From assembly GCA_965204375.1 (NCBI GenBank), contig OZ241986.1, positions 640,001-704,000 on the forward strand: DNA of 64,000 nucleotides, in the 5' to 3' direction. The position numbers were made by a program, and so were the translations under genes. Within the stretch, counting starts at the first letter, position 1, and the number at the start of each line of letters is the position of its first letter. Source of the stretch: Candidatus Latescibacterota bacterium (lineage in GTDB: Bacteria > Latescibacterota > UBA2968). This document shows, in pieces, positions 5,726 to 52,194 of the stretch. The notes under the pieces are model-generated. The model was not told the origin of the DNA. It saw only the letters and a program-made list of their open reading frames with translations, and did no database searches.

Positions 5726-6406
5726 ATGGATTTGCTAACAAATTTTATGAAAAACCGATTTGTAAAAACGGTTAAATGGGTGATTTTAGCAATTGTGTGG
5801 TTTATTGGTTTAGCAGGTTTGCCTGATGACACCAATAAATGGCTGGAATGGCTCTCGTGGCTTACCACTACGATTCCGGATGTGGCCAATAAATGGTGGT
5901 GGTGGGGAGAATGGCCTTGGTGGATTAGATTGGCCTTTGATGCCCTTTTTTGGTTTATTACATTTCTGTTTTTGCAACGCCTCCCATGGCACAAAATATG
6001 GCATCATATTATTTCCCGATGGTCCACAATATGGGATACCATTCGTAGAGTTGAGGCATTTTTTTTCGGTGTCCCCGTTGAATACTGGTTTTGCTCAACA
6101 GACGAAAAGGGTGAAGCCAATATCATTGGTGAAAAAAGAAAGACGCGCTTGCGCCCTGAACAACCAACAAACGTGTCTTTGAATCATTTGTGGGAATTCG
6201 AGCAAGATGACGTGCATATTGCTGAAATGCAGATCAGAATACCAGTAAGCGGATATAGGGCATCAGTCAGCATAGAAGACCACCCCCTTAGATATACGTC
6301 TTACGAAGAATCGGGTTTGATGTCATATTATAGTTTTGACTTGTGGCAACATTCTGGATTATTCCCTCATGAAGTTAGAATTAAGGTTGAGAAGCGCGAA
6401 ACGTAA
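5726..6406 (+). CDS. Hypothetical Trp-rich membrane protein
   Basis: 226-aa ORF with N-terminal hydrophobic segments. Confidence 0.5.
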   Translation: MDLLTNFMKNRFVKTVKWVILAIVWFIGLAGLPDDTNKWLEWLSWLTTTIPDVANKWWWWGEWPWWIRLAFDALFWFITFLFLQRLPWHKIWHHIISRWSTIWDTIRRVEAFFFGVPVEYWFCSTDEKGEANIIGEKRKTRLRPEQPTNVSLNHLWEFEQDDVHIAEMQIRIPVSGYRASVSIEDHPLRYTSYEESGLMSYYSFDLWQHSGLFPHEVRIKVEKRET

Positions 6407-6897
6407 AGTTTAATGCGATTTTGGGAGCTTTCTTTTTTGCCTCGAAACCCATATAAAAGTCAGTGCTCAAATGAGCAGAAAAACGCTTGGTTTCAGGGGA
6501 TTATGGAGTTATCTTAATGGTAATTCATAACCCCTTATATTTGTGGGGATAAAAAAGTAGGGCCTGCGTTTTACGAGAACGCAAGCCCTCTAAGGGGAAA
6601 TGATCATGCAGACATTATTCTTTCCCCGTATAGTACAAACAATCTTGCTCTTTTTCGGTTGCCCATCTCGCCTGACCTGTCTATCTTTTATCGTCCGCTG
6701 ACGGCAAATGTACACCAGAGAGGGGAGGGGAATGTCTATCTACAAGCTCAATGCAATAATCAGACTGATTGAAACACTTTTTCGACTGGACAGGTGCCTG
6801 AAAAAAGAATACGGACAGAAAATGCAAAGGCCACCAAGATCGAGAGCATTTCCAAAAAGGGACTGGAGATAACACGCTATGAGAAGGAGGTAAAAAA

Positions 6898-7449: not shown

Positions 7450-7572
7450 AACATCATCCTTCGTTGCTTTGGTCGCATAGAATTTGGCAACAGCATCCAA
7501 AATGCGTCAAGTCCAGTCTATAAAAACTGCTTACCGCCATTTACCGCCATTAAAGATTTACCATCCTCTCCC

Positions 7573-7601
7573 TTGACCCTTTTATCACTCCTGACTATAA
7601 T
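7573..7601 (+). promoter_or_regulatory. Sigma70-type promoter of the four-gene operon
   Basis: TTGACC-17 bp-TATAAT, with AAGGAG RBS before ATG 7665. Confidence 0.6.
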
Positions 7602-7664
7602 ATCTCATATTTTCATCTGTCCTGAGCAGGCATCTCATGCAACTGAATCAAGGAGACTTTCGAA

Positions 7665-8534
7665 ATGGTCGTGAAGACGAGCACCGTAACCTATCGTGCC
7701 CTGAGCTTAGGGGCTGGCGTACAGAGTTCTGTTTTAGCACTCCTCCTATCGAGGTCCCACCCCCGTTTGGTTGAGTTGGGCTATCCCAAACCTGACGTTG
7801 CCGTCTTCGCTGATACTGGATGGGAGCCAGATTATGTATATCAACATTTGGACTGGCTTGAAGAGCAACTCCAATATCCACTGATTCGCGTGTCCGAAGG
7901 TGATCTAAAGACTAATCTTAAAAAAGCCCGCACGGTGTCGGGTCACAACTTTGTTGATGTTCCCTTATTCACGGTCAATGGGGATGGGAAGAAGGGCATG
8001 TTACGGCGGCAATGCACCACTCACTACAAAATTAAGCCTATTTATCGACGGGTCAGGGAACTTGCGGGAGGACAGCGCGGCCGACCATTTCCCAAGAACA
8101 CCCACGCCGAAATGTGGATCGGAATTTCGCTGGATGAGGTGGGCCGCATGAAGCCGAGCCGGGAACGATGGGTCGAACATCGCTGGCCGCTAGTGGATAT
8201 TGGTATGACACGCCAAGATTGTGTTGAATGGTTTAATTCTGAATATCCAGGTCGCCACCTGCCCCGGTCAGCTTGCGTCATCTGTCCTTATCGTTCAGAC
8301 GAACATTGGCTGGAACTGAAGCAGTCTGAACCAGATAGCTACGAGGAGGCTGTGCATTTTGATCGATGGCTTCGCCATAGTACAAAGAATCCTGTAAGGG
8401 AATTGCTACATGGCCGGCCATATCTACATGCTGCACGTCGTCCCCTTGATAGCGTTATTGATGAGCAAGAAGCAGAGGGCGGGAGAGAGATCAATCACTT
8501 TGAAAACGAATGCGAAGGCCTTTGCGGTGTCTGA
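7665..8534 (+). CDS. PAPS-reductase-like (adenine-nucleotide alpha-hydrolase, PP-loop) Cys-rich protein
   Basis: SLGAGVQSS PP-loop variant, FADTGWE, RQCT..YK, SACVICPY, C-terminal ECEGLCGV. Confidence 0.8.
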   Translation: MVVKTSTVTYRALSLGAGVQSSVLALLLSRSHPRLVELGYPKPDVAVFADTGWEPDYVYQHLDWLEEQLQYPLIRVSEGDLKTNLKKARTVSGHNFVDVPLFTVNGDGKKGMLRRQCTTHYKIKPIYRRVRELAGGQRGRPFPKNTHAEMWIGISLDEVGRMKPSRERWVEHRWPLVDIGMTRQDCVEWFNSEYPGRHLPRSACVICPYRSDEHWLELKQSEPDSYEEAVHFDRWLRHSTKNPVRELLHGRPYLHAARRPLDSVIDEQEAEGGREINHFENECEGLCGV

Positions 8535-9774
8535 AACAGAGGTAGAAACGGTCAGGCCGAAGTTCCCGCTATATCCCTACCAGCGGCAGGTATTAACTGA
8601 CATCTTTCGTGCCCTATCATCTCCTGATCGTCGAGCCGTAGCTCATCTTCCTACCGGTGCGGGAAAGACTAGAATCGCAGCCCACGCGGCCTGTCACTTG
8701 CTCAACAAAAAAGACACCGATGAGTCCCTTGTCATCTGGTTAGCGGCTACTGAGGAACTTTGCGAACAAGCGGCAAATCAACTCTCTGACGCCTGGACAT
8801 ATCTGGGACGGCGGGATGCCTCCATTCATCGAAACTGGGGAAGCCGGTCGCTTGATCTACGGCGTCTTTCATCCGGATTCTTGGTGACTGGTCTCGCCAA
8901 ACTGCGCTTTGCTGCATTCCAAGACAATACCCTTCTTGCACACCTTGCGAACTGTACTGCTGCCGTCATCTTTGACGAGGCTCATCAGGCAGTTGCAGAA
9001 ACCTACTCTTTCATAACTGAGCAGCTATGCAGTGTTAGGCCGCCTCTCCTTGGTCTTACGGCCACGCCGGGACGCACAGCAAATCTGACCGATGACGACT
9101 ATCGACTTGCCGACATGTTCAATCACAAAAAGGTTTCGATAGATCCAAGGGGTCACGATAGCCCCGTTACCTACCTGATCCAGAATCGCTACCTTGCCGA
9201 TCCCCGCTTTGTGCCGATCAGCTTCGACTCCGATACCGTAATTACTGATCCTCAACCCGGTATGGATTATAGTATTCATGAGCTGGACGACCTGGGTCGC
9301 AACCGCGAGCGTACGATAAAAATAGTCGAACTCACAGAGGATGCAGTTAGACGTCACCCTCGTACAATTGTTTTTTCCCCTTCTGTTGGAAGTGCTGTGG
9401 AATGCAACAGACTTCTCCGGAGTAAAGGAGTTGCAAGTGCAGTGGTAACTGCCAATACACCAGGTGAAGATCGTCGATCTATTGTTGATGACTTTAGGAG
9501 TGACAGCAGGGAGCATAAAGTGGTGTTCAACTATGGCGTGCTTACCGCCGGTTTTGACGCGCCCAGGACTCGTTGCGTCATTATCGCCCGGCCTACCACA
9601 TCACTGGTACTCTACTCACAAATGGCAGGTCGAGCGATGCGCGGGCCCAGGGCTGGAGGAAATCCAAAAGCCGAGATACTCACCGTTGCAGATACGAACC
9701 TTCCGGGTTTCGGGTCTGTTACAGATGCATTCACGAATTGGGAGGAACTATGGTCGAACAACTCAACGACCTAA
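8527..9774 (+). CDS. SF2 (DEAH, ResIII-like) helicase
   Basis: LYPYQ Q-motif, PTGAGKT, DEAH, TAT, GFDAP, QMAGRAMR; GTG start overlaps the upstream stop. Confidence 0.9.
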   Translation: MSETEVETVRPKFPLYPYQRQVLTDIFRALSSPDRRAVAHLPTGAGKTRIAAHAACHLLNKKDTDESLVIWLAATEELCEQAANQLSDAWTYLGRRDASIHRNWGSRSLDLRRLSSGFLVTGLAKLRFAAFQDNTLLAHLANCTAAVIFDEAHQAVAETYSFITEQLCSVRPPLLGLTATPGRTANLTDDDYRLADMFNHKKVSIDPRGHDSPVTYLIQNRYLADPRFVPISFDSDTVITDPQPGMDYSIHELDDLGRNRERTIKIVELTEDAVRRHPRTIVFSPSVGSAVECNRLLRSKGVASAVVTANTPGEDRRSIVDDFRSDSREHKVVFNYGVLTAGFDAPRTRCVIIARPTTSLVLYSQMAGRAMRGPRAGGNPKAEILTVADTNLPGFGSVTDAFTNWEELWSNNSTT

Positions 9775-11603
9775 GAGATGCAGATCGCAGCCTATTTCCC
9801 AGCAGCTACACCATACGAGCTCTTCGAGATAGTAGGTATCATAACACCGCGTATGCCATAGCAGAACTCATAGATAACTCAATAGAGGCAGATGCCGAAC
9901 AGATTGATCTCCTTTGCTTGGAACGCTCGCAGCGGGTAGGGTCTCAGACCCGGTGGCGAGTGTCTGAAGTGGCTGTCTTGGACAATGGTTCAGGAATGAG
10001 CGTGAAGACCCTCTTTGACGCTCTTAAGTTTGGAGGAGGAACCCGGCATAACTCAAATAGGGGAATTGGAAAATACGGCATGGGACTCCCAACTTCGTCA
10101 ATGTCGCAATGCAAAAGGGTGGATGTATGGACCTGGCAAGACGGTATTGATTCAGCGTGGCACTCCAGCATCGACGCCGACGATATTGAGCAAGGTAATC
10201 ATGAGGTTCCCATTCCTGATCAAGACACATCTATACCGGAGGTGTGGAAAACGGCCGGCAGTGACAAAATCTATGAAAGCCTCTCAGGGACTCTTGTAGT
10301 GTGGAGCAAACTGGACAAAATGCAATGGAAAACCGGCCGTACAATTATCGACAACGTTTCCAGAGAGGTAGGGCGCATCCACCGGTACTGGATTGATGCG
10401 GAGATGACAAGAATACGAGTTGGTTCTTTCCACTCTAACCGCCCTGGCGAAATTGAGAATGAAGGGTATATTGTCTCAAATGATCCTCTCTACCTGATAA
10501 AACCTTCGTCTACTCCTGTGCCTTGGAACAACGAACCGATGTTTAGCGAATGGGCTAAGAAAGAGTATCCCCTTACTGCGGAGGGTAAAGAGATCACTAT
10601 TGAGGTGAAGTATTCAATTGTGAGGCCCGAGGCCCTAAAAACAGATAGTGTTAGACAGTATCCAGGCAGCACTGATTATGGCAAGCACGCCAGACATAAC
10701 ATTGGTGTCTCAGTCATTCGGGAGGATAGGGAGATCGTTCTTGAGGACGCCTTTCTCAGAGAGGGGGGTAGTGATGAAAATCCCCTGAACCGCTGGTGGG
10801 GTTGTGAAGTGCATTTCCGTCGAAGTTGCGATGAGTTGTTTGGCGTGGATCACAACAAGCAGATGGCTGCGAACTTCACGCATGCTGCAAAGACGCTCGC
10901 GCGTGATGATCGCCCCAATCAGGTCATACTAGACGAGATGGGAATTGACGATGACATCATCTACAAAATCGTAGGAGATATCCGTGATCAAACGCGTGCC
11001 ATGATGCGTCAAATCGCACAGATGTTTGCACAACGGAGGGACTCACAGAATGGGGGTGGCAGTAGAAGCCCAGAAATTAAGGCTGTAGAGACTGCCACTG
11101 ATGCAGACCGAGACGCTATAACGGCCGGTATAGAGACACCAACCGGCACTGATAAAGACCGTGAGCAAATTCCATCCGAAGAGCGAGAAGCCGGTCTTAC
11201 GGAACAGTTCATTGAATCTGGTCAGGACGGTCAGGAAGCCCAAAAACTCGCAAAGATGCTGGTAGAGCAAGGTCTCTCATATCAATTCAATCCAGCTCAA
11301 CTTGACGGATATCAGATGTTTAATGTGCGCTCGAATCAAGGAGTCCTGCATATCAATCTTAATACTGACCATCCAATCTACAATCTGCTCAAGCATATCG
11401 AAGGTCGTCTTGACGAAAATATTGACGAGAGCCATCCTTTATTTGAGGCCAGTGTCGCTATCCGATTATTACTGTCGTCATGGGCACGAATGGAAGACCA
11501 GACCGAATCACGGGAAGAACGAATGCATATCCAAAACATCAGTATGAATTGGGGGCGCCAAGTAGATAAGGTCATCAATCAACTGCGTGATAGGGACGAA
11601 TAA
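9750..11603 (+). CDS. MORC-type GHKL ATPase (HATPase_c_3)
   Basis: ELIDNS, DNGSGM, IGKYGMG, GT boxes; GGAGG RBS before ATG 9750, which overlaps the helicase end. Confidence 0.85.
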   Translation: MVEQLNDLRDADRSLFPSSYTIRALRDSRYHNTAYAIAELIDNSIEADAEQIDLLCLERSQRVGSQTRWRVSEVAVLDNGSGMSVKTLFDALKFGGGTRHNSNRGIGKYGMGLPTSSMSQCKRVDVWTWQDGIDSAWHSSIDADDIEQGNHEVPIPDQDTSIPEVWKTAGSDKIYESLSGTLVVWSKLDKMQWKTGRTIIDNVSREVGRIHRYWIDAEMTRIRVGSFHSNRPGEIENEGYIVSNDPLYLIKPSSTPVPWNNEPMFSEWAKKEYPLTAEGKEITIEVKYSIVRPEALKTDSVRQYPGSTDYGKHARHNIGVSVIREDREIVLEDAFLREGGSDENPLNRWWGCEVHFRRSCDELFGVDHNKQMAANFTHAAKTLARDDRPNQVILDEMGIDDDIIYKIVGDIRDQTRAMMRQIAQMFAQRRDSQNGGGSRSPEIKAVETATDADRDAITAGIETPTGTDKDREQIPSEEREAGLTEQFIESGQDGQEAQKLAKMLVEQGLSYQFNPAQLDGYQMFNVRSNQGVLHINLNTDHPIYNLLKHIEGRLDENIDESHPLFEASVAIRLLLSSWARMEDQTESREERMHIQNISMNWGRQVDKVINQLRDRDE

Positions 11604-11605
11604 AT

Positions 11606-12460
11606 ATGTCTATTGGGCCAGGAGATTTGTTGAGCCAGCTCTGTTCAGATGCTCAGGATCTCATCTTGGCGGCACCCTACATCAAGGCTGATGCACTTAC
11701 CAGAGTTCTGACAGATGTTAGTCCGGCTGCGTCCCTCATCTGTATCACAAGGTGGAATTTGCACGACCTCGCTGTGGGGGCGTCCGATACTGAATGTCGC
11801 ACTATTGTCACTGAGCGTGGTGGCTCATTCAGGCTCCATCCCTCACTTCATGCCAAATACTACCGAGTAGATGATATAGTCCTCATCGGATCTGCTAACC
11901 TGACATCGTCCGCAATGGGCTGGTCGCGCCAGCCTAACTTGGAGATCCTTTGTCGTCCAGGAGACAACTTTGATGCATACGCCTTTCAGCAGGGACTTCT
12001 GGAAGGATCGAGAGAAATAGGCAATGACGAATTCGCACGTTGGGAATCCATAACTGAAATCAGTACGCAGAGTAACAGCGTAATTACTGACGACCAACCT
12101 CAGCTTGACAACTGGCGACCAGCGACTCGTGATTTTAGGAATTTAGAACTCTCATATCAAGACAGAGAAGATGAGATAGCTTCATTCGACGAGCAACGAG
12201 CGGCGCAGCACGACATCCAAGCTCTCCGAATCCCTCCAGGATTGACCGATGAGCAGGTCCGAATGTGGGCATCGGCTTGTTTACTTGCCGCTCCCTTCAC
12301 TAACACCGTGATAGGATTGTATAACATGGAAGTCCCAAGAGCATCTCGCTCAATTGCTGAGACCTATAACCTTGATGTTACTGAGGCAAGAAGAGCCATG
12401 GAAACGGCACAGAACTGGCTCGCATTCCTCACCCCTGAGACATTATTCAGAAATCCTTAA
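11606..12460 (+). CDS. Phospholipase D-like (HKD) nuclease-domain protein
   Basis: APYI, HAKYYRVDD...GSANLT......NLE single HKD motif; 2 bp after the MORC stop. Confidence 0.85.
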   Translation: MSIGPGDLLSQLCSDAQDLILAAPYIKADALTRVLTDVSPAASLICITRWNLHDLAVGASDTECRTIVTERGGSFRLHPSLHAKYYRVDDIVLIGSANLTSSAMGWSRQPNLEILCRPGDNFDAYAFQQGLLEGSREIGNDEFARWESITEISTQSNSVITDDQPQLDNWRPATRDFRNLELSYQDREDEIASFDEQRAAQHDIQALRIPPGLTDEQVRMWASACLLAAPFTNTVIGLYNMEVPRASRSIAETYNLDVTEARRAMETAQNWLAFLTPETLFRNP

Positions 12461-12547
12461 ATTGGATGAAATAGGTGGAGTGTTTAGGACTTACTCCTAC
12501 TTCTCGGAGATATTGGCAAAAATTGCGGATCACCTCGAGTACACAAC

Positions 12548-12587
12548 AAAAGCCCGTCGATCATCACCGATTGACGGGCTTTCTTTT
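12548..12587 (+). terminator. Intrinsic terminator after the four-gene operon
   Basis: AAAGCCCGTCGAT...ATTGACGGGCTTTCTTTT hairpin with U-tract. Confidence 0.7.
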
Positions 12588-12590
12588 ACA

Positions 12591-13091
12591 ATGAAGCAGA
12601 TAGATCAAGTTCAGCGAGAAGATATTTTTGGCTCCCCAACTGATTCATTTACTGAATCTTTCTGTGTGTGGGATCATTTCCCCATCCATCACTTCCGCAG
12701 GAACAAGAAGCCTATTATCGCAATCGGACATGAGCCACAAAAACAATTGGTTCCCCAAAAACTACACCATCCCAATTATCTCAAAAAAGCCTTGTATTAT
12801 CACGAGATTCTTGAAAAGGGCTATGTTCAGTCTCAGACTGCACTTGCCGAACAGGTGGGCATTTCGAGAACCAAAACTCGCTTGATTCTACGGTTGCCCA
12901 AACTGGATAAAAAAATTAAAGATTTTATTCTGAAGATAGATGACTCAGACCCTAAATTGGATTTCCTATCTGTATATCGGTTGCAGCCATTACTCCAGGT
13001 TAAAAACAAAGAGAGACAGAGAAGGGAATTTTGGCAAATGATTGAGGAGCAATATCCAGACCAAAGTGCCTGTGAGCAGGTGGCAGACTGA
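12591..13091 (+). CDS. HTH protein (ParB/KorB-like HTH segment)
   Basis: SQTALAEQVGISRTKTRLILRLPKL HTH pattern. Confidence 0.5.
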   Translation: MKQIDQVQREDIFGSPTDSFTESFCVWDHFPIHHFRRNKKPIIAIGHEPQKQLVPQKLHHPNYLKKALYYHEILEKGYVQSQTALAEQVGISRTKTRLILRLPKLDKKIKDFILKIDDSDPKLDFLSVYRLQPLLQVKNKERQRREFWQMIEEQYPDQSACEQVAD

Positions 13092-13254
13092 ATTGGCAAA
13101 ATTGATCGGATCAAAACAGTCCGTAATTGCACAACTCGAAGATGCGGATTATGAAGGGCATTCTCTTACGATGCTTCAAAGAATCGCGATTGCATTGAAT
13201 CAAAGGATTGAGATTAATTTCGTACCAGTGCAAGGGCAACAAGAGGTTGTTTAA
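13084..13254 (+). pseudogene. Truncated XRE-family HTH (antitoxin-like) fragment
   Basis: QTELAKLIGSKQSVIAQLEDADYEGHSLTMLQRIAIAL without its own N-terminus; overlaps the previous ORF. Confidence 0.55.
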
Positions 13255-13448: not shown

Positions 13449-14471
13449 ATGACAACCATTGTTACGTTTGCAACGAAAGACGTTATTGTAATGGGCAGTG
13501 ATAGTCTCGGCACTGCCAGTCGTCCCGTAATTGATCCTGTCAAGCTATATTCGCATTTTGACAAAGAGGGCAATTTAAAAACTGACTTGAAAAATTTCAA
13601 TTTTTGGAAGGACGTTTATTCAGACCGAGAAGAAGTCCCTTATAGCCACATGGCACACATGGATAAACTTTTTCGACTACGTGATAATATTGGAGTTTTG
13701 ACTGCTGGCATTGTAAGCATTGGCAACGTGACGATAAAAAGCATCATCCGCGAGGTAGCTACAACAGGAGTCAGTGGGTGTGAGGAAGTGGTTGAAAAAT
13801 TAATTGACAAAATCAGACCACATTACGAAAAACAATATTCTGAATCACACCATAAACCAAACATTGAGCTTATGGTTGCAGGGTGGGATAACAGCGACCT
13901 GACCAAGCCCCAAATTTATCGGATAAAATTTCCTTATCTGCTAACGGAGTCGTTTGATGATCCCGATGACGCACTGCCAGAAAACAGGTTAGAACTGAGG
14001 CAGGAATATGGTATATATTTTGGTGGACAATTCCGAGAAATAGCACGCCTTGTACACGGCACAGACGTTGAAAATATGCGCGAAATCCAAACCCGCCATA
14101 TAGACCTTTTAAAGCGTTTTGCTGGTGACATTAAAAAATTAAACCCTAAAAAAAAGATTAAAGTACCAGATTTATTAAAGGATGATTCTGGCAGGTTTGA
14201 TATGTTTGGCCCCATAGACCCTGACAATCCCAAAAGTAGAGATTGGCAGCTTAGTGGTCTTGAGGCTACTTGTGGTGACTTTTCTGACCAAAACGCCATA
14301 AACTGTGTATACTGGCTTATTGATCTTATGATCAAAGTTCAAGAATTTGGGGATACTATGCCCACAGTCGGGGGAGATATTCACATCGCAATCATCGACA
14401 AAAAGACAGGATTTAAATTTCTTTCTCAGGAGTCCTATAATCTTCAAGGCCACAAGACACCTAAAATTTAA
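13449..14471 (+). CDS. Proteasome-beta/HslV-like Ntn hydrolase
   Basis: M-TT N-terminus, MGSDS, K-LF...IGVLTAG, LMVAGWD, C-terminal TVGGDIHIAII; own TTGACG-17-TATATT promoter at 13367-13395. Confidence 0.7.
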   Translation: MTTIVTFATKDVIVMGSDSLGTASRPVIDPVKLYSHFDKEGNLKTDLKNFNFWKDVYSDREEVPYSHMAHMDKLFRLRDNIGVLTAGIVSIGNVTIKSIIREVATTGVSGCEEVVEKLIDKIRPHYEKQYSESHHKPNIELMVAGWDNSDLTKPQIYRIKFPYLLTESFDDPDDALPENRLELRQEYGIYFGGQFREIARLVHGTDVENMREIQTRHIDLLKRFAGDIKKLNPKKKIKVPDLLKDDSGRFDMFGPIDPDNPKSRDWQLSGLEATCGDFSDQNAINCVYWLIDLMIKVQEFGDTMPTVGGDIHIAIIDKKTGFKFLSQESYNLQGHKTPKI

Positions 14472-15703: not shown

Positions 15704-17104
15704 ATGGGAAAATTAAATGTGGAAAATAGGACATTGTTCACTTATGACAACCTGTCTGTGATGCAGGGCATTAACAGTGAAACGATTGATTTGATTTACC
15801 TGGATCCGCCGTTTAACTCAAAGCGTAATTATGCAGCTCCTATTGGATCACAAGCTGCGGGAGCTGCTTTCAAGGATACGTGGAATCTTGATGATATTAA
15901 GCGCGAATGGGTAGAGGAAATAGAGGCAGATAATAAAGCGACATGGGCATCAATAGTCTCTGCTGGTCATATAAGCGGTGAAAGTACACAAGCATATTTG
16001 ACGTATATGGCGATCAGACTTATCGAGATGCGCCGAATTTTGAAACCAACAGGCAGTATATATCTGCACTGTGATCCTACGGCAAGTCACTATCTGAAAC
16101 TTTTAACGGATGCCGTTTTTGGACAGCAAAATTTTCGAGCAGAAATTACGTGGCATCGTTCTGCGGAAAATTTGTCAAACAAAAAATGGCGACGGGCTTT
16201 TGAAACATTATTTTATTATTCAAAAGGGAAATCGTGGACTTGGAATCAAATTTTTGAGCCGCTCTCTGAACAGGTATTGACGAGAGATTATCGCTTCGAG
16301 GATGGGCGGGGACGCTACAAGACGACGGCTTGCACAAACAATGCACACCGCCCGAATATGTTTTATGAGTTTAATGGCAACACTCGACAATGGCGATATT
16401 CCAAAGAAACCATGATGAGATATGATCGGGAAGGCATGTTGGTCTATAACAAGGAGGGTATCCCCCGCCGTAAACTTTATCTTTCGGATGTTCAGGGGAC
16501 AAAACTGACTAATGTATGGTCAGATATAAAAGTCTTAGCCAGTAATGCAAAAGAGAAAACGGGGTACCCCACGCAGAAGCCCCTCGCTCTTTTAGAGCGC
16601 ATTATTGAAGCGTCGTCAAATCCGGGCGATATGGTACTCGATCCCTTCTGTGGTTGTGCTACAACCTGCATAGCTGCGGAGAAATTGGAGCGACAATGGG
16701 TTGGCATAGATATTGAGCCAGAAGCCCGCAATCTTGTTATTCAGCGATTGGAAAAAGAGATTGATGTAGATGCTCTTTTCAAGGCTGGTGGTGGCGCATT
16801 GCCCGATGTAATTCATAGAAAGACACCGCCTAAGCGTACAGAAAAAGATGCCCCCCGGCGATCTTCTAATATAAAAATGAAGTTATACAAGTTACAGGAG
16901 GGACGTTGTAATGCCCCATGTGGAGAGGATGAGCAAGGGCGGGCGTTCCCTATTGATATATTTGAGATTGACCATATACGCCCCAGGTCTAAAGGCGGTG
17001 CGGATGTTGATGAGAATTTACAGTTGTTGTGTCCCACTTGTAATGGGCGTAAAGGGAATCGTACGATGGGATATTTGTTGGATCTGTTAAGTCAAGAATC
17101 ATGA
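15704..17104 (+). CDS. Beta-class N6/N4 DNA methyltransferase fused to a C-terminal HNH endonuclease
   Basis: DPPFN precedes YPTQKP and DPFCGCAT; C-terminal DHIRPRSKGG....NLQLLCPTCN..K. Confidence 0.9.
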   Translation: MGKLNVENRTLFTYDNLSVMQGINSETIDLIYLDPPFNSKRNYAAPIGSQAAGAAFKDTWNLDDIKREWVEEIEADNKATWASIVSAGHISGESTQAYLTYMAIRLIEMRRILKPTGSIYLHCDPTASHYLKLLTDAVFGQQNFRAEITWHRSAENLSNKKWRRAFETLFYYSKGKSWTWNQIFEPLSEQVLTRDYRFEDGRGRYKTTACTNNAHRPNMFYEFNGNTRQWRYSKETMMRYDREGMLVYNKEGIPRRKLYLSDVQGTKLTNVWSDIKVLASNAKEKTGYPTQKPLALLERIIEASSNPGDMVLDPFCGCATTCIAAEKLERQWVGIDIEPEARNLVIQRLEKEIDVDALFKAGGGALPDVIHRKTPPKRTEKDAPRRSSNIKMKLYKLQEGRCNAPCGEDEQGRAFPIDIFEIDHIRPRSKGGADVDENLQLLCPTCNGRKGNRTMGYLLDLLSQES

Positions 17105-33282: not shown

Positions 33283-34923
33283 GTGATTAAATGCGTTCTG
33301 TATGTACGAGTTTCCACCGACCTGCAAGCCGAGATTAAGAACAGTAGTCTCGATACCCAAATTGATCTGCTTCAGAAGTACATCGAAATTAAGGATTCCA
33401 CGTCGCCAAAGGAAGAATGGAAAGTGGTGGCGACCTATCGTGAAGAAGGAAAATCAGGCAAGAATTTAGAGCGTCCTGAATTCAAACGGATGGTTCGAGA
33501 CATTGAGCAGGGTAAAATCAATGCGGTATTATGCACAAAAATTGATCGTGTCAGCAGGTCTATCGTCGACTTTTATCAATTCCAAGAATTTCTAAAAGAG
33601 CATAAAGTAACATTCATATCTCTCCAGGATAATTGGGACACGTCAACTGCTATGGGGCGGTTTGCCCTCTCAATTTCTTTGGTAATGGCCCAGCTAGAAA
33701 GGGAACGCACCAGTGAACGTACAAAAGAAAAAATGCAGTGGCGTGCAGAGAAGGGTCTGTGTAATGGCGGACAGATTCTTGGGTATGATAATGATCCAGA
33801 CAACAAAGGTGTTCCAAAGCCCAATGAGGCAGAACGAGAACAGGTACTCTTAATTTTTCAGACGTATGTTAAAGAGCAGAGTTTTCGGGCTACGGCACGA
33901 ATCATAAATGAAAAAGGCTATCGTACGAAATCATACATATCGAGGAGAGGTAATATCCACGTTGGCAGAAAATTCAATAAAACACAGATCATGCGTATGT
34001 TGCAAAATGAATTTTATATTGGAAAAATTACTCACAAAGGGAAGACGTATGACGGCCAGCATGAACCCATTATTCCAATGGAATTATGGAATCGGGTGCA
34101 AGCTATCATAAAAACCAACCGAGTCACTGGTTCCAGAAGCAGAAAACAAAACCTGCATACCTTCTTGCTACAAGGTCTGGTAAAATGCGGATTATGTGAA
34201 TCTCACATGACGCCCACTTATGCTCAGAACCGCCAAAAAAAGCACTATTTCTATTATCATTGCACCTGTAAAATCCATCGTGGAAACGATGAATGCAAAA
34301 TGAAACCTGTGCCTGCACAAGCACTTGAACAGGTGGTCTCAGATCGGTTAATTCAACTCAGTGACGACCAGAAACGTGTCCAGGAGCTTATCGCAGAAGC
34401 TACGACAAGCAACTCAGAGCGTATAAAAACTTTGGGGCAGACACAGGAAAATTATCGCAGGAATCTCAAAGATATTGAAAAGAGGCTGGATGCTTTGGCG
34501 GAAAGCATTGCTGGACGCAAGATCGGCATAAAAACCATCAGTCAAAAAATCATCGGCCTGGAAGAACAAAAAAGCCAAATAGAGCAGGAGATGATGGAGA
34601 ATGAAACAACGCTTGCAGAGGCAAAACAAAAGGCCGTAAGTGTTGCTCAGTGGGAGCAAAAACTCACGACCTTTGAGGAATTATATAATGAAGCCACACC
34701 AGAGGAAAAAAAAGACCTCTTAAGGCTGCATATCAACCACCTGATCTATACCCCTGATGGGATTCAACTCGCCTTATTTGATCCCAGTGCCGAAGTGGAT
34801 AGGCCCAAAGTTCAGCGAGTCGTTGCATCTGGCTCCGGCGGTAGGACTCGAACCTACGACCCAGTGGTTAACAGCCACTTGCTCTGCCAGCTGAGCTACG
34901 CCGGAACGTCATATTTCCAATAG
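33283..34923 (+). CDS. Large serine recombinase (integrase)
   Basis: YVRVST catalytic Ser, SG....RP.F, DRVSR, recombinase domain (YIG), zinc ribbon (C..C...YY.C...C), coiled coil; AAGGAGG RBS. Confidence 0.95.
   Translation: MIKCVLYVRVSTDLQAEIKNSSLDTQIDLLQKYIEIKDSTSPKEEWKVVATYREEGKSGKNLERPEFKRMVRDIEQGKINAVLCTKIDRVSRSIVDFYQFQEFLKEHKVTFISLQDNWDTSTAMGRFALSISLVMAQLERERTSERTKEKMQWRAEKGLCNGGQILGYDNDPDNKGVPKPNEAEREQVLLIFQTYVKEQSFRATARIINEKGYRTKSYISRRGNIHVGRKFNKTQIMRMLQNEFYIGKITHKGKTYDGQHEPIIPMELWNRVQAIIKTNRVTGSRSRKQNLHTFLLQGLVKCGLCESHMTPTYAQNRQKKHYFYYHCTCKIHRGNDECKMKPVPAQALEQVVSDRLIQLSDDQKRVQELIAEATTSNSERIKTLGQTQENYRRNLKDIEKRLDALAESIAGRKIGIKTISQKIIGLEEQKSQIEQEMMENETTLAEAKQKAVSVAQWEQKLTTFEELYNEATPEEKKDLLRLHINHLIYTPDGIQLALFDPSAEVDRPKVQRVVASGSGGRTRTYDPVVNSHLLCQLSYAGTSYFQ
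34830..34905 (-). tRNA. tRNA-Asn(GTT), island insertion site
   Basis: TCCGGCGTAGCTCAG...GCTGTTAAC...GGTTCGAGTCC...GGAGCCA cloverleaf. Confidence 0.95.
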
Positions 34924-35853: not shown

Positions 35854-36630
35854 ATGACTATGCTTTCACAAGAGCAACTGACACAATATGATCGAGATGG
35901 GTATGTGCTGGTGTCGGGCTTGATTCCAGAAGAGACAATTGCCAATGCGGAAGCTGCGATGTGGTCTGCGCTCGGGTTGGATCGGGATGATCCAGCTTCG
36001 TGGTCTCCTTTGCCAGACGAAACAGATGGGGTGACAACAATCGCCCGCCAGGGGGTGATTGAACATTTTGGGCTTCGTGATCCCGCGTTGCTGGCTTGTT
36101 GTACGCCCGCATTTTACGAGGCGCAGAGCCAACTGGTTCGGGAGAATGCAGATGCATTTCACTGTCAGAAACCACAGCCTGAGGCAGTGTGGGCACGCAG
36201 TGTATTTCCAGTTCCGAAAGGCTGGGATTATCTCAGTGGACACGTCGATGGTGGACATCGACCTTTTAATGTTTTTCCCGGGTCATTTCGGGTTTCCTCT
36301 CTGACTTATCTCGATTCTGGTGTTGCACAAGGTGGTGGGACTGCGGTCTGGCCAGGATCACACCGAAAGCTCAGTGAGGCGGCAGTGCAGGATCCCGACC
36401 GATATCAAATGCTGTCAGATTTTGCGAAACCGCTACAAAAGTTTGATATGGGAGAGCCGATTGAGTTGAGGCCGTCCCGAGGAGATGTACTGTTTTTTCA
36501 TTATCTGTTGATACATTGCGGGTCTCTCAATACAAGCAATAAACCGCGTTTTGCCCTCCGCTGGATGTGTGTCTGTGACACATGTCGCATCTGGGAAAAG
36601 TATGGCGAGTGGAATATCTGGATGCCCTGA
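35854..36630 (+). CDS. PhyH-family 2OG-Fe(II) dioxygenase
   Basis: YDRDGY, HVD, GGT.V.PGSH, GDVLFFH..LIH......R. Confidence 0.85.
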   Translation: MTMLSQEQLTQYDRDGYVLVSGLIPEETIANAEAAMWSALGLDRDDPASWSPLPDETDGVTTIARQGVIEHFGLRDPALLACCTPAFYEAQSQLVRENADAFHCQKPQPEAVWARSVFPVPKGWDYLSGHVDGGHRPFNVFPGSFRVSSLTYLDSGVAQGGGTAVWPGSHRKLSEAAVQDPDRYQMLSDFAKPLQKFDMGEPIELRPSRGDVLFFHYLLIHCGSLNTSNKPRFALRWMCVCDTCRIWEKYGEWNIWMP

Positions 36631-36700
36631 TGTTGATGGTTGACTCAGTGCGGGGAAACCCGTATATTTTTTTTCTTGTAATCAGCGTTGTTTCCGCGGG

Positions 36701-37165
36701 GTGTCCGTGCTGGATGATGACCTGACAGGCATGAATTTTGCGCTCGAAGAAGCCCGCATAGCAGCAAGCGAGCAGGAAGTGCCTATTGGCGCTGTTGTGA
36801 TGCACAATGGTGAGGTCATCGCACGAGATCACAATCGCATTGTCCAGCGAAATGATCCCACTGCGCATGCCGAAATGCTCGTTATTGGGCAGGCAACAGA
36901 AAAGTTGGGCGTTCGGTGGCTAAATAACTGCGTGCTTTATGTAACACTGGAGCCCTGTGCGATGTGTGCAGGTGCTATGGTGCTTGCCCGATTGTCCCGG
37001 TTGGTTTTTGGGGCTTGCGATCCCAAAACCGGGGCTTGTGGATCTCTGAGAAATATTGTGGAAGATACACGTCTGAATCATCGCGTGGATGTGCGCCGAG
37101 GCGTTTTAGAAGATGCGTGTGGTCAGGTATTGCGGGCGTTTTTTCAAACTTTGCGCGAAAAATAA
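36701..37165 (+). CDS. tadA: tRNA adenosine deaminase
   Basis: EVPIGAV, HAE, TLEPCAMCAGA. Confidence 0.95.
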   Translation: MSVLDDDLTGMNFALEEARIAASEQEVPIGAVVMHNGEVIARDHNRIVQRNDPTAHAEMLVIGQATEKLGVRWLNNCVLYVTLEPCAMCAGAMVLARLSRLVFGACDPKTGACGSLRNIVEDTRLNHRVDVRRGVLEDACGQVLRAFFQTLREK

Positions 37166-37175
37166 ATAAAATATC

Positions 37176-37265
<90 letters not shown>

Positions 37266-37325
37266 AAAATAAGCACACAGGTGTATGTGTGAGAAAGCCG
37301 ATAGCTGACCGCTTACAGCTATATT

Positions 37326-37415
<90 letters not shown>

Positions 37416-37434
37416 AAAATATCACGAGGTCGTT

Positions 37435-37806
37435 ATGCCGCATCCCATTCGCATTACAGTTGGCGATATTGAACTCGAGGCCGAGTTAAACGATTCGCAA
37501 ACAGCAGACAAAGTTCGCGAGGTTTTGCCGCTGGATTGTTCGTTTAATACATGGGGCGATGAGATTTACTTTGCAATTCCCGTTCAAGCGGGGCCCGAAG
37601 ATGCATGTGAAACTGTGGCGTTGAACGACCTCGGATATTGGCCGCCGGGTCATGCATTTTGCATTTTTTACGGTCAGACCCCAGCCAGTCATGGAGATGA
37701 AATTCGTCCCGCAAGTCCCGTCAATATTATTGGACGGGTGCTGGGCGATGCCACGGTGCTCAAATCTGTTTCGGGAGAGCGCAATATCGTGGTTGAAGCC
37801 GTTTAG
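37435..37806 (+). CDS. Cyclophilin-like fold protein (DUF369-type)
   Basis: WGDEIYF.IP, YWPPG.AFCIFYG.TP.S....RPASPVN. Confidence 0.85.
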   Translation: MPHPIRITVGDIELEAELNDSQTADKVREVLPLDCSFNTWGDEIYFAIPVQAGPEDACETVALNDLGYWPPGHAFCIFYGQTPASHGDEIRPASPVNIIGRVLGDATVLKSVSGERNIVVEAV

Positions 37807-37807
37807 G

Positions 37808-37884
<77 letters not shown>

Positions 37885-37939
37885 AAATATATTGTTAAGA
37901 GGCGAGAGGTAAGATCCCTCTTGTATCTCACTGTTTTCA

Positions 37940-38212
37940 GGTCGTGCTAGACGGGGAGATAGCGGTGCCCTGTAGCCCGCAATCCGCTATAGCGGGGTCG
38001 AATTCCACGTCTGAGAACCGGTATTTTGGATCGCGGTCGATGAGTAGGCAGCGTTGATCGTCAGGTCCTGCGCAACGTACCTATGCCGAACCCCGTCAGG
38101 ACCGGAAGGTAGCAGCGGTAAGCAAATCGGTGCGTGTGCCGCAGGGGCACCTGGCAGGAGCCAGCGCTCGTTGAACGCCCCGGGGTAGCGGTTCGAAGCG
38201 CGGTGCACGACC
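37940..38212 (+). ncRNA. ffs: Long (Alu-domain) SRP RNA
   Basis: GTGCTAGACGGGGAG..AGCGGTGCCCTGT 5' Alu region; GTCAGGACCGGAAGGTAGCAGC helix 8; closing GGTCGTGC/GCACGACC; upstream of dnaX. Confidence 0.9.
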
Positions 38213-38261
38213 TTTTTTCAGGTTGGGGGCTGGGGTTGGAGAGGCCCCCTTTGGAGTTTTT

Positions 38262-39983
38262 ATGTCTTACACGGTAATGGCCCGAAAGCGGAGGCCACAG
38301 GCATTTGAAACAGTGGTGGCACAAAACCATGTGACCACCACATTGCAAAATGCCATTCGGCTGGGGCGCGTGGCGCAATCGTATCTGTTTTCCGGGCCTC
38401 GAGGCACGGGTAAGACCACTACGGCGCGATTGCTTGCCATGGCACTCAATTGCGAGCATGGGCCAACGGCTGAACCGTGTGGGGAATGTGCTTCGTGTGT
38501 TGCCATACGCCAGGGCAACAGCATGGATGTGCTGGAGATTGACGGGGCTTCGAACCGCGGGATTGATGAAATCAGGCAATTGCGCGAAGAGGTGGGGTAT
38601 GCGGCTTCGCAAGGCAAACGCAAGGTTTATATTATCGACGAAGTACACATGCTCACGACTGAGGCTTTTAATGCCTTGCTCAAAACACTCGAAGAACCGC
38701 CAGCGCATGTTGTTTTTGTATTTGCAACGACCGAAGCTCACAAAGTGCCCGAAACCATTTTGTCCCGGTGTCAGCGCTACAATTTTCGGCGCATTCCGCC
38801 CGTGGCTATTGTAGAAGAACTCAAAATGGCTGTGGATGAAGAAGGCGTAACAGCAGAAGAATCCGCTCTGTTTTTGATCGCTCGAAAAGCCGATGGGGGC
38901 ATGCGCGATGCACTGAGTTTGCTGGATCAGGTCATTGCATTCTCAGATGCTGATATTACGGAAGATGCCATACAGAATTTACTGGGTTTGATTCCTCGAG
39001 ATGTGTATTTTGATCTGACGCAGGCCATTGTGGATCGGGATGGTGCCCGCGCTTTGGAGATTGTTGACGAATTGGCACGCGAAGGAAGTGATCTGGGTGA
39101 ATTTGTGGCGGGGCTGATGGCGCATTTTCGACATTTGCTCGTTGCTTGTGCTGCGGGAAATTTAACAGATGAAAATTTACCAGAAGCTGACCGCGTGCAG
39201 TATGCAGAGGTCGCCGCGCAATTCGAAGAGGCAGACCTCGTGCGCATGCTCAACGCTGTGAGTGAACTGGAAACGCAGATTAGTCGGGTGACCGAGCCGC
39301 GATTCTGGCTCGAATTGACGGTTATGAAGCTGGTGCAGATGACGTCAAGTGTAGATTTGCAGGTTTTGATTAGTCGATTAGAACAACTCGAGCAGGGGTT
39401 AAAAAACCAGGGGACGACTACTGGGACGCGGCGGTCATTGCCCAGACCCCAACCTGCACCAGAGCGAAAAGCGACATCATCCAGACCAGATACGCGCGTT
39501 AGGGAAGAGAGGTTACCACCGCCGACAACGGTTTCCAAATCTTCACCACCGCAACAGAGGGGCAATGGCCGTCCCGTGGCAGAACAGCCAGAAGAAGAAA
39601 TACCTCCAGTGCCAGATGTATCCTCAGAAGAGCCGCCAGACTTTTCTGTCATAAAGGATAAGTGGGAACAACTTGTACAGGCAGTGAAGAACGAGAGAAT
39701 GTCGTTGGGTACATTTTTGGCCGAAGGCCGCCCACAATCAATGGATGGGCGACTTCTCGTGGTGGCTTTTCAAAAGAACCTCGAATTTCACGCCAATCAG
39801 GTGCGGCGCGGACGCGCTCTGGTAGAAGAAGTTGCACGCGGTGTTTTTGGAGGTACAGTCACCATTTCGTGTGAGGTTATTTACGATGATAATAAGGAGC
39901 AAGTCGCTGAGGATAAGGGTGTAGAAGAAGATGAGCGCGTGCAGATGGTGATGCAGGTGTTTAGCGGGGAAGTGATCAGGTAA
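38262..39983 (+). CDS. dnaX: DNA polymerase III gamma/tau
   Basis: GPRGTGKTT, Zn cysteines, DEVHML, AFNALLKTLEEPP, SRC. Confidence 0.97.
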   Translation: MSYTVMARKRRPQAFETVVAQNHVTTTLQNAIRLGRVAQSYLFSGPRGTGKTTTARLLAMALNCEHGPTAEPCGECASCVAIRQGNSMDVLEIDGASNRGIDEIRQLREEVGYAASQGKRKVYIIDEVHMLTTEAFNALLKTLEEPPAHVVFVFATTEAHKVPETILSRCQRYNFRRIPPVAIVEELKMAVDEEGVTAEESALFLIARKADGGMRDALSLLDQVIAFSDADITEDAIQNLLGLIPRDVYFDLTQAIVDRDGARALEIVDELAREGSDLGEFVAGLMAHFRHLLVACAAGNLTDENLPEADRVQYAEVAAQFEEADLVRMLNAVSELETQISRVTEPRFWLELTVMKLVQMTSSVDLQVLISRLEQLEQGLKNQGTTTGTRRSLPRPQPAPERKATSSRPDTRVREERLPPPTTVSKSSPPQQRGNGRPVAEQPEEEIPPVPDVSSEEPPDFSVIKDKWEQLVQAVKNERMSLGTFLAEGRPQSMDGRLLVVAFQKNLEFHANQVRRGRALVEEVARGVFGGTVTISCEVIYDDNKEQVAEDKGVEEDERVQMVMQVFSGEVIR

Positions 39984-40011
39984 GGATAGCAAAGGATAAA
40001 GGAGATAGAGT

Positions 40012-40338
40012 ATGGCAAAAGGTATGGGCGCGATGATGAAGCAGGCCCAAAAGCTGCAAGCCAAGCTGGCCAGGGTGCAAGAAGAACTGGGAGCAAAAGA
40101 GGTAGAGGCAACTTCGGGTGGGGGTATGGTGACAGTAAGGGCCAGTGGGCATCAAGATATTTTGTCGATAAAAATTGATCCCGAAGTAGTTGATCCCGAA
40201 GATGTGGAAATGCTGGAAGACCTCGTGCTGGCGGCGGTTCAGCAGGCGCGTCAAAAAGCTGCGGACATGGCCGAAGCAGAAATGCAGAAAGCCACAGCGG
40301 GCCTTATTCCGCCCGGCATGAATATGCCGGGGTTCTGA
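40012..40338 (+). CDS. ybaB: YbaB/EbfC nucleoid-associated protein
   Basis: MMKQAQKLQ, SGGGMV, D.EMLEDLV; lies between dnaX and recR. Confidence 0.95.
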   Translation: MAKGMGAMMKQAQKLQAKLARVQEELGAKEVEATSGGGMVTVRASGHQDILSIKIDPEVVDPEDVEMLEDLVLAAVQQARQKAADMAEAEMQKATAGLIPPGMNMPGF

Positions 40339-40383
40339 GATTGGAAAAGCGAAGTCCTCGCGCTATAGTTTTTGGAGTTTTCC

Positions 40384-41619: not shown

Positions 41620-41646
41620 GGCGAGCGAATAGCTGCGCCTATAGTT

Positions 41647-42665: not shown

Positions 42666-42673
42666 ATTGCTTC

Positions 42674-42702
42674 TTGACGTATATACAAATGTTCACTATA
42701 CT
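42674..42702 (+). promoter_or_regulatory. recA promoter with a possible SOS box
   Basis: TTGACG-17-TATACT; ATAC-AAAT-GTTC in the spacer resembles GAAC-N4-GTTC. Confidence 0.5.
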
Positions 42703-47549: not shown

Positions 47550-47556
47550 ATAGAAG

Positions 47557-52191: not shown

Positions 52192-52194
52192 GCT

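Follow-up and report, generated by a model that had tools for sequence, protein, structure and literature searches.

A 64-kb stretch of DNA from a Candidatus Latescibacterota bacterium (contig OZ241986.1, positions 640,001 to 704,000; referred to here as the window, whose coordinates are used throughout) carries four genes, A, B, C and D, all on its plus strand, that we call the unit or cassette and that probably constitute an undescribed compact restriction-modification system. Gene A (7665-8534) encodes a phage-type protein of 289 amino acids (aa) with the fold of 3′-phosphoadenosine 5′-phosphosulfate (PAPS) reductases, within the PP-loop superfamily; gene B (8527-9774, GTG start) a 415 aa superfamily 2 (SF2) helicase resembling RadD, Rad25 and HsdR; gene C (9750-11603) a 617 aa MORC-like GHKL ATPase; and gene D (11606-12460) a 284 aa protein with a single-HKD phospholipase D (PLD) nuclease domain and a helical domain. 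Judging from sequence, the segment 7514-12472 (plus strand, 4,959 bp, containing a promoter and genes A-D) appears to be a self-contained, horizontally mobile defence cassette of the restriction-modification type, defence being the function that we infer for it. Two observations carry this reading: the unit behaves as one conserved, horizontally mobile block, and relatives of the helicase-MORC-PLD trio encoded by B, C and D are tied to a DNA-sulfur modification module in two phyla. Our more specific proposal, on which our confidence is evenly balanced, is that A would write a probably sulfur-based self mark on DNA and that B, C and D would form the restriction effector that reads it. What is new consists of two predictions, a helicase-MORC-PLD effector placed after sspBCD and a reduced version of such a system whose whole writer would be replaced by one phage-type enzyme.

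Conservation and mobility of the unit

When genomes were scanned by pattern for close relatives of A, with one genome taken per species, 17 loci were found (71-97% identity) in metagenome-assembled genomes labelled Latescibacterota, Dehalococcoidia/Chloroflexota and alphaproteobacterium, and on a contig labelled 'Rhodothermaceae'. The order A-B-C-D is present in all 17, and no flanking gene is common to them beyond close kin. An earlier reading of this DNA from its letters alone (the sequence-only reading) had proposed neighbourhood conservation as a check, and the PP-loop subfamily does occur together with the helicase, MORC and PLD genes at 17 of 17 loci. Identity to the window proteins is 71-97% for A, 55-93% for B, 37-98% for C and 40-96% for D, and this order of conservation (A > B > C, D) would be the usual pattern for a writer as compared with its effector. 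The distribution of the A-linked form is patchy (11 of 168 genomes of the window's phylum), and a scan of metagenomes with the C alignment gave only six loci, mostly short (L020-L025).

A second copy of the cassette lies in the same genome (C1:4557621-4552661), with 90.7% nucleotide identity over 4,975 aligned bp, and the DNA around it gives no alignment to the window beyond 7514-12472. Homology to the window in L002 is bounded by the same two ends, and L001 has the same right end. Since the ends in copy 2 and L002 are identical, the unit is set at 4,959 bp, with the promoter inside it and a hairpin found downstream of D outside it. Copy 2 and L002 share their flanks and the window copy sits in different DNA, so the window copy is the transposed or recombined one. 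L002 is a 9-kb contig labelled 'uncultured Rhodothermaceae', the flanks of which (about 920-993 and 5953-6020) match those of copy 2; the contig probably represents the orthologous locus in a closely related genome and may owe its taxonomic label to faulty binning. Copy 2 itself (about 7662-12622 of L068, minus strand) is found among TonB-receptor-like and TPR genes and not in an island.

Several copies show signs of decay. Gene C of copy 2 is interrupted by a TAA codon (giving ORFs, or open reading frames, of 370 and 265 aa) with A, B and D intact; C lacks residues 42-147 in L001 and has an in-frame TAA in L009, and B is split in L015. These four breaks among 19 cassette copies all lie in B or C, and A is intact in 19 of 19, although chance acting by gene length would give such a pattern with p ~0.17 and it is only a hint. 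Between the window and copy 2 the proteins are 98 (A), 94 (B) and 93% (D) identical, with C at only 84%. Most of the 98 differences in C fall in residues 53-89 and 203-282, and one lies past residue 432; the variable stretches of C are likewise at about 53-89 and 203-282, and this clustering suggests a specificity region or recombination. About 2 kb upstream of the intact cassette in L003, the stretch 6046-6415 holds pieces of an additional A (residues 71-105) and an additional B (3-75), which look like the remnant of another copy.

An ORF scan of the window gave four same-strand frames in this region, at 7665-8534 (289 aa), 8410-9774, 9573-11603 and 11606-12460. The start of B is most likely the GTG at 8527, which gives an 8-nt overlap with A ending in its TGA codon (8532-8534), and the equivalent GTG is the exact ORF start of B in L006 and L007. 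For C the start is the ATG at 9750, which is preceded by GGGAGG, produces a 25-nt overlap with B and has the same position in five orthologous ORFs, and D begins with the ATG at 11606, 2 nt past the TAA of C. The coupling of the four frames recognized in the sequence-only reading is borne out by these junctions. Its sigma-70-like promoter, TTGACC-17-TATAAT (7573-7601, plus strand), departs from the consensus at one position of 12 and ranks first among nine promoter-like sites in the region. The number of such sites is not above chance (9 versus 8.1 +/- 3.2 in shuffled sequences), but both hexamers of this one are conserved in 7 of 12 aligned upstream regions, in which the spacer and flanks vary. 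With its own promoter and a length of less than 5 kb, the cassette is small enough to be cloned whole.

Near-identical sequence is present in 20 run rows from 10 studies, mostly labelled sponge metagenomes. One metatranscriptome (X6) yields a single contig of 4,812 nt that covers 7631-12419 at about 95.5% identity and ends in adapter sequence, and two RNA libraries of a second study (X17 and X18) cover 7652-12472 in pieces; the DNA of the same sample as X6 (X7) runs past 7514 and 12472 into other flanks. The X6 contig fits one transcript starting just downstream of the predicted -10 hexamer, although contigs of this sort prove neither transcription, nor strand, nor a single molecule.

Downstream of D, on the plus strand, is an intrinsic-terminator-like hairpin with a U tract (12549-12590), consisting of a perfect 14-bp stem (12549-12582) followed by UUUCUUUU. 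It was identified by folding (-23.4 kcal/mol, z -8.05) and is absent from the list given by the terminator scan. The terminator of the sequence-only reading is in this respect a strong hairpin, but one that lies 3′ of the right end of the unit at 12472 and is therefore excluded from what is conserved. Several separate X7 DNA contigs match the stretch around it alone (12535-12640), with high summed depth, and the element may be a sequence that is repeated in these genomes.

The helicase-MORC-PLD trio and its Ssp-linked relatives

The C profile matches in 26 of the 168 genomes of the window's phylum. Eleven of these have the A-linked form (at least 850 bits), and the other 15 mostly a distant form scoring about 300-460 bits, with two weak matches at about 80 bits. 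Eleven loci of the distant form, with about 7 kb on each side, were taken together with one weak match. In all 11 distant loci there are genes for a helicase and a GHKL ATPase, with identities of about 41% to B and about 32% to C, and ten also encode a separate PLD protein with 20-41% identity to D; in L064 the PLD domain is fused to the N terminus of the helicase, which makes a full PbeA-like protein (1.2e-72). An SspD-like gene is located 0.6-3.3 kb upstream of the trio in 8 of the 11, several of the eight being from one genus and hence not independent. Four of the eight were compared with the PADLOC models, and each has both SspC (E-values 0 to 1.5e-90) and SspD (1e-95 to 3e-135). The genes in L063 are contiguous, in the order sspB (DUF4007, 2.6e-86), sspC, sspD, helicase, GHKL ATPase and PLD. 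A GmrSD_N-like gene intervenes between the Ssp module and the trio in L057, and DndB does so in L056 and L059, accompanied by a GIY-YIG gene in the former and an insertion sequence element in the latter.

The association extends to a second phylum. A sample of 401 Pseudomonadota genomes contains seven matches to C at 1e-30 or better, of which one is the A-linked cassette L014, two are weak and restricted to the N-terminal part of the GHKL protein, and four are strong. Each of the four strong matches adjoins an sspD gene, whose product is 49-66% identical to SspD from L063, and sspB and sspC are present in three of the four. In a quick IQ-TREE phylogeny of C (31 rows, the broken copy 2 and L001 being left out), with branch support from the SH-like approximate likelihood ratio test (SH-aLRT), the 17 A-linked rows form one clade (support 100) and nine Ssp-linked rows fall in at least two places outside it. 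The simplest history for these sequences would be that the trio was first an Ssp partner and that one lineage swapped sspBCD for A.

The accessible part of a 2021 survey (PMC8092258) assigns a known restriction partner to about 15% of 2,678 sspBCD modules (196 with sspFGH and 199 with sspE), and the phosphorothioate-linked restriction branches named in the accessible part of a 2025 review (PMC12707154) are DndFGH/SspFGH, SspE and Pbe. If our reading is true, the trio behind sspBCD in two phyla would be a further phosphorothioate effector branch, and bacterial MORC ATPases would gain a concrete substrate to test.

B contains the Pfam domains ResIII, DEAD and Helicase_C; among solved structures RadD comes closest to it (1e-36), ahead of HsdR, Hef, the SauUSI helicase and XPB/Rad25, and its motifs I (PTGxGKT), II (DExH), III (TATPGR) and VI (QMxGRxxR) are invariant in 23 sequences. 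C matches HATPase_c_3 of Pfam (1.4e-22), its closest model in the PADLOC defence library is MzaB (2e-15), and the PDB sequence matches of its profile, nine of nine, are to eukaryotic MORC2, MORC3 or MORC4, over residues 30-155 only. D scores 23.5 bits against Pfam PLDc_2, under the cut-off of 27, and 8.6e-9 against DrmC of PADLOC, and the residues H82, K84, S96 and N98 of its HKD motif (HxK(x)4D...GSxN) are invariant in 23 sequences. An AlphaFold2 model of D (mean predicted local distance difference test, pLDDT, 89.6) has the PLD-nuclease fold from residue 1 to about 140, with matches to SauUSI (Z 13.3, root-mean-square deviation 3.0, 140 residues aligned), NucT and Nuc (11.3), BfiI (10.8) and NgoAVII (10.1). 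Residues 166-284 form a helical domain without a convincing fold match, the weak ones being BrxA (Z 5.8), the FokI recognition domain (4.7), SspB (4.5) and winged-helix proteins (about 4); a DNA-binding winged helix is a lead from the model, at Z scores under what counts for helical domains, and a protein atlas search with this domain yielded nothing above a score of 0.82, likewise no more than leads.

In the mechanism that we propose, B would translocate on DNA, C would clamp or loop DNA in the manner of MutL/MORC and couple ATP to the nuclease, as proposed in the accessible part of PMC2292703, and D, which by family precedent would need a dimer to make one active site from single HKD motifs, would dimerise to cut or nick. 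Together the three would be an ATP-driven effector on DNA, distinguishing self from invader by means of the mark from A. The mark might shield the host DNA, as with SspFGH/DndFGH, or license the effector, as with SspE/Pbe.

By content the closest described effectors appear to be PbeA with its ATPase and the operons of MORC, Rad25-like helicase and HKD nuclease. The operons of the latter kind, the MORC/paraMORC operons of Iyer, Abhiman and Aravind 2008 (PMC2292703, accessible part), are laterally mobile; in them a MORC-type GHKL ATPase is combined with an SF2 helicase of the Rad25 kind and with a nuclease of the HKD or restriction-endonuclease type. In the cassette too a MORC-type GHKL ATPase adjoins an SF2 helicase and a nuclease. 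They differ in carrying DNA methylases, of which the unit has none, a PAPS-reductase-fold enzyme being in the writer's place; the terms PAPS, PP-loop and DndC each occur zero times in the accessible text of that paper. The likeness to MORC restriction-modification operons drawn in the sequence-only reading accordingly stands, but it is shared with PbeA. As described in the accessible part of PMC6459918, PbeA joins PLD, ResIII and Helicase_C domains, that is the content of D plus B, requires an ATPase partner and acts in a system whose writer belongs to the PAPS-reductase family. The helicase part of PbeA (positions 227-420 of 672) is matched by B at 6.8e-19. In the cassette, however, PLD and helicase are separate genes (they are fused in L064 only), C is a MORC-like GHKL protein without a PbeC match whereas PbeC is SMC-like, a one-protein writer would take the place of DndCDEA, and there are no counterparts of PbeB or PbeD and no further ORFs in the unit.

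These comparisons bear on whether the mark, instead of protecting self DNA, would license or stimulate B, C and D, which would then block the replication of unmarked invader DNA, loss of A resulting in no defence and no toxicity. We regard this as unlikely. The kinship in content with PbeA, seen in the match of B to its helicase part and in the L064 fusion, the solitary trios in L061 and L062, and the statement in the accessible part of PMC6459918 that PbeABCD needs phosphorothioation to act and is non-toxic without it all speak for licensing, but C is of the GHKL and not the SMC-like PbeC type, PbeB and PbeD are missing, and the four cassette breaks, all in B or C and none in A, fit a toxic effector that is restrained by A.

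Protein A and the putative mark

By sequence comparison A is neither SspD nor a short DndC, and is a member of a phage-type PAPS-reductase-like family. It scores 19.1 bits with Pfam PAPS_reduct, under the cut-off of 22.5, and 54.7 bits (2.9e-15) with the SspD model of PADLOC, which gives 318-448 bits with the SspD proteins of L056, L057, L059 and L063; with phrog_424, 'PAPS reductase', the E-value is 3.2e-44. There is no match to NCBIfam models, nor to the PADLOC models for DndC and BrxP, the latter of which is matched by true SspD proteins. The sequence-only reading had set A apart as a short PP-loop protein that is not canonical DndC; the separation holds, but the family is the phage-type one and not a short DndC/SspD. 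Alignment of A with SspD reveals common DTG, R-x-C-T...K-[IL]-x-P, [GA]-I-[SR]-x-D-E and R-S-x-C-x-x-C motifs as well as C-terminal cysteines. The PP-loop of A is degenerate (S14-L-G-A-G-V-Q-S21), the whole A family having G-A-G-V-Q-S where SspD has S-G-G-[KR]-D-S. Residues G16, G18, Q20, S21, R115, C117, E158, R161, S202, C204, C207, P208, W215, G285 and C287 are invariant in the family, C186 and C283 occur in 90% or more of its sequences, and C283 and C287 are borne on a flexible C-terminal tail, ECEGLCGV.

An AlphaFold2 model of A built with 108 sequences has a mean pLDDT of 93.5, the C-terminal tail (280-289) being disordered with values below 50. Its top matches among solved folds are PAPS and adenosine 5′-phosphosulfate (APS) reductases (Z 10.2-11.9), next the Fe-S tRNA thiolases NcsA and TtuA, and then TilS; the Cap9-CdnD complex is also among the matches (Z 8.7). 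Chain C of PDB entry 21fy ('PptA', 270 aa) is the sole solved-structure sequence relative both of the A profile (1.3e-3) and of SspD (3.8e-7); a literature search for it turned up no explanatory paper. A prediction of the complex of A with B gave a score of 0.00 and a mark of 0.32, and speaks neither for nor against binding. We also considered whether A might be a housekeeping CysH, and rejected this in view of its two copies on a mobile unit, its patchy distribution and the absence of sulfate-assimilation neighbours.

The CysH protein of E. coli has a degenerate loop, binds PAPS without splitting ATP, and has a mobile ECGLH tail; the loop of A and its ECEGLCGV tail are presumably comparable. 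Because the loop would then be CysH-like and not an ATP-pyrophosphatase loop, the chemistry of A could differ from the known phosphorothioation route, being for example fed by a sulfonucleotide or making a mark other than phosphorothioate, and the adenylated intermediate envisaged in the sequence-only reading is weakened. A more far-reaching departure would be that there is no DNA mark at all, B, C and D being an innate, modification-independent effector and A modifying not DNA but a nucleotide, small molecule or protein of the system (like the QueC-like PP-loop protein Cap9 of type IV CBASS), or using PAPS or APS. The degenerate, presumably CysH-like loop, the cysteines on a flexible tail, the true PAPS and APS reductases at the head of the fold matches (Z 10-12) together with Cap9-CdnD, the absence of a DNA-binding domain in A and the existence of solitary trios are all compatible with this. 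We nevertheless find it distinctly unlikely, given that relatives of the trio are tied to DNA-phosphorothioation genes in two phyla, that A has the cysteine constellation of SspD, and that phage members of the A family lie in replication modules with a DNA methyltransferase adjoining in 20 of 80 loci.

The A family is large, with 4,255 representative clusters (50% identity) at E <= 1e-3 and 1,249 at <= 1e-30 in an exhaustive search; a word-indexed search with A gave 7,729 hits, the best 120 of which are all at least 73% identical. At least 544 relatives are found in viral contigs (41-47% identity), and the neighbourhoods of 80 of these were examined. Their usual neighbours are genes for DNA polymerase (36 loci), replicative helicase (32) and primase (21), a DNA methyltransferase is the neighbouring gene in 20, none of the 80 has a homologue of C or D, and one has a distant helicase; phage A-family genes thus sit in DNA-replication modules. 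A sentence in the accessible part of PMC13551039 that cites Piel et al. 2022 states that a phage PAPS reductase promotes evasion of host Dnd.

A quick tree of A with SH-aLRT support contains 94 rows, made up of the 19 cassette copies, nine SspD proteins, five fusions, 20 of the 80 viral sequences and 41 of the listed representatives, for which each third stand-alone protein was taken and P0121 and P0122 were added. The 19 cassette copies form one short-branched clade (support 97) inside the phage-type family, the closest neighbours of which are P0121, P0122 and P0126 and then four of the five DUF6339 fusions. The nine SspD proteins are split off by a long branch with support 100, from which we conclude, at the level of sequence, that A is not derived from the SspD adjoining the Ssp-linked trios. 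The fusions (P0124, P0125, P0128, P0134 and P0160, 520-560 aa) carry a PAPS-reductase-like domain behind DUF6339, and P0259 has an N-terminal winged-helix (Csa3/MarR-like) domain in place of DUF6339. DUF6339 corresponds to the PADLOC candidate component PDC-M33C (matches down to 1e-19), so that cellular proteins of the A family have been recruited into candidate defence systems on more than one occasion. When viral contigs were searched with P0124 the PP-loop half alone was matched in 79 of 80 loci, so the DUF6339 fusions are seemingly not viral.

The phage distribution of the family raises the question of whether A is linked to the trio only incidentally, either as a mobile or phage-derived anti-defence gene (of the anti-Dnd kind) beside an unrelated restriction system, or as part of a set that is a DNA-repair module. 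The family is overwhelmingly phage-borne, without C or D in any of the 80 loci, and the best named relative of B is the repair helicase RadD; but the order is fixed in 17 of 17 loci, A and B overlap by 8 nt and share a promoter with the rest, the single short-branched clade of cassette A proteins is matched by a single clade of C, and the cassette is patchy (11 of 168 genomes), duplicated in its genome and located in an island with Fic/PDC-S24, AbiC-like and methyltransferase-HNH genes. An incidental linkage is in our judgement very improbable.

We return to the proposal that A marks DNA. The three-protein Ssp writer would be replaced by one 289 aa phage-type enzyme of PAPS-reductase fold, which would put a sulfur-containing, phosphorothioate-like mark on host DNA with a housekeeping cysteine desulfurase as sulfur donor. 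The host genome (6.34 Mb, assembly 95.98% complete) has five cysteine-desulfurase-family genes, none of them near the cassette, and a housekeeping donor is therefore available, as in the iscS-dependent Ssp/Dnd systems (PMC8092258, accessible part). Searches with tblastn using SspB and SspC of L063 found nothing in the whole genome, and PADLOC and Pfam gave no SspB or SspC match among the window neighbours. The DndC model likewise has no match genome-wide and the best DndD score is below the cut-off (40.7 versus 245.85 bits), DndE having been outside the search; a DndB homologue is present far from the cassette (C1:2810225-2811349). The sequence-only reading was thus right in finding no SspB, SspC, DndD or cysteine desulfurase nearby, and for SspB, SspC and DndC the absence extends to the genome.

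Several points weigh against a DNA mark written by A. Both the cassette and the rest of the genome lack a counterpart of the nickase and DNA reader SspB and of the ATPase SspC, and nothing explains how a 289 aa protein without a DNA-binding domain would find its sites. With a GAGVQS loop in place of SGGxDS, an ATP-pyrophosphatase chemistry of the DndC/SspD type is doubtful. Loci L061, L062 and L064 have no modification gene within about 7 kb on either side, so the trio can persist without a linked writer, and 320 of 553 PbeAC pairs are likewise without one in the accessible part of PMC6459918; the L061 and L062 trios lie among metabolic genes. Both trees are quick ones with SH-aLRT support, and the root of the C tree depends on two very long-branched GHKL outgroups. 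To these is added what was said above on the contigs from RNA libraries.

In its boldest form the proposal would be that A, a single 289 aa protein without SspB, SspC, DndD or DndE, suffices to give DNA a heritable sulfur mark, perhaps while carried by the helicase-MORC complex; that the trio is a third, as yet undescribed class of phosphorothioate-reading effector, the first being SspE with SspFGH/DndFGH and the second Pbe; and that a bacterial MORC protein reads a mark in the DNA backbone. We think it unlikely that all of this holds. The question posed is whether a phage-type PAPS-reductase-like enzyme can mark DNA alone, and as the A family is large and common in phages, where its function is a guess, the answer would bear on phage anti-restriction.

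Described systems and genomic setting

No system among the 2023 PADLOC models matches the four-gene set. The matches are piecemeal: A to SspD, B to the helicase part of PbeA and to type I, III and IV restriction helicases, C to MzaB, and D to DrmC and ZacB. Likewise, the papers searched describe neither the four genes together nor a partnership of the trio with Ssp genes, and none joins a PAPS-reductase-, SspD- or DndC-type enzyme with a GHKL/MORC ATPase, a helicase and a PLD protein in one system; the supplementary neighbourhood tables of PMC10853773, PMC6459918 and PMC8092258, which may list such loci, lay outside this search. The words MORC, HATPase and PLD are absent from the 2024 Dnd reappraisal. 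The minimal modification/restriction system put forward in the sequence-only reading gains in these respects, there being a conserved mobile unit, no named PADLOC system and relatives of the trio behind sspBCD.

The resemblance to Ssp systems lies in A, a homologue of SspD (2.9e-15) with common DTG, RxC and CxxC motifs and C-terminal cysteines, and in the paralogues of B, C and D that stand behind sspBCD, the place taken by SspE or SspFGH in described systems. The cassette differs in having no SspB, SspC or SspA, and A is outside the SspD clade and lacks the SGGxDS loop. The Ssp effectors also differ in kind: in the accessible parts of PMC8092258 and PMC12707154, SspE combines DUF262 with DUF1524, and the members of SspFGH are a Walker-A protein, one of unknown type and one resembling FtsK, whereas the cassette has a helicase, a GHKL ATPase and a PLD nuclease. 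B, C and D match no Ssp effector model at E <= 0.01 among whichever such models the PADLOC library contains. From Dnd systems the cassette is distinguished by the lack of a DndC match in A. BREX type 4 is similar in that a PAPS-reductase-family writer, BrxP, replaces the methylase of a defence system (PMC12839542, accessible part), but A has no BrxP match and PglZ, BrxC and BrxL are not nearby.

The N-terminal domain of D shares its fold with SauUSI (Z 13.3), NgoAVII (10.1) and BfiI (10.8). SauUSI further resembles the cassette in coupling PLD to an SF2 helicase, which matches the B profile at 3.3e-16; it differs as a single-chain, modification-dependent type IV enzyme with neither a writer nor a GHKL partner. 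A nests in the phage family of phrog_424, 'PAPS reductase', the phage members of which, unlike A, are without C or D (0 of 80 loci).

The neighbours of the cassette in the window include genes for Fic, two AbiC-like proteins, a uracil-DNA glycosylase-like protein, a ParB-HTH protein, a proteasome-like protein, an N6_N4 methylase-HNH fusion, Rad52 and RadC. With the large serine recombinase farther along, this has the character of a mobile island with a leaning towards defence. The defence-rich island of the sequence-only reading is partly borne out, by Fic/PDC-S24, the two AbiC-like genes and the methyltransferase-HNH fusion. The Fic protein (1017-2690) aligns over almost its whole length with the PADLOC candidate PDC-S24 (5e-184) and also matches SoFic (3.5e-22). 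A single ORF of 466 aa (15704-17104) encodes the N6_N4 DNA methylase together with the HNH nuclease, which forms the C-terminal part of the fusion, so that the earlier statement that there is no methyltransferase holds for the operon but not for its surroundings.

Directly past the hairpin, and outside the unit, lies a gene for a ParB-HTH protein (12592-13091) that has a 65%-identical paralogue at C1:626369-626785, and this is followed by a small ORF without a family match (13042-13254), also outside the unit. For the 340 aa proteasome-subunit-like protein (13449-14471) there is a paralogue with 35% identity at C1:4589585-4590580, some 32 kb away from cassette copy 2. Farther to the right, a large serine recombinase gene (33283-34923) precedes about 20 kb of ORFs that all lie on one strand and in which the GC skew is strongly positive (35854-55134); this may be a prophage or integrative element.

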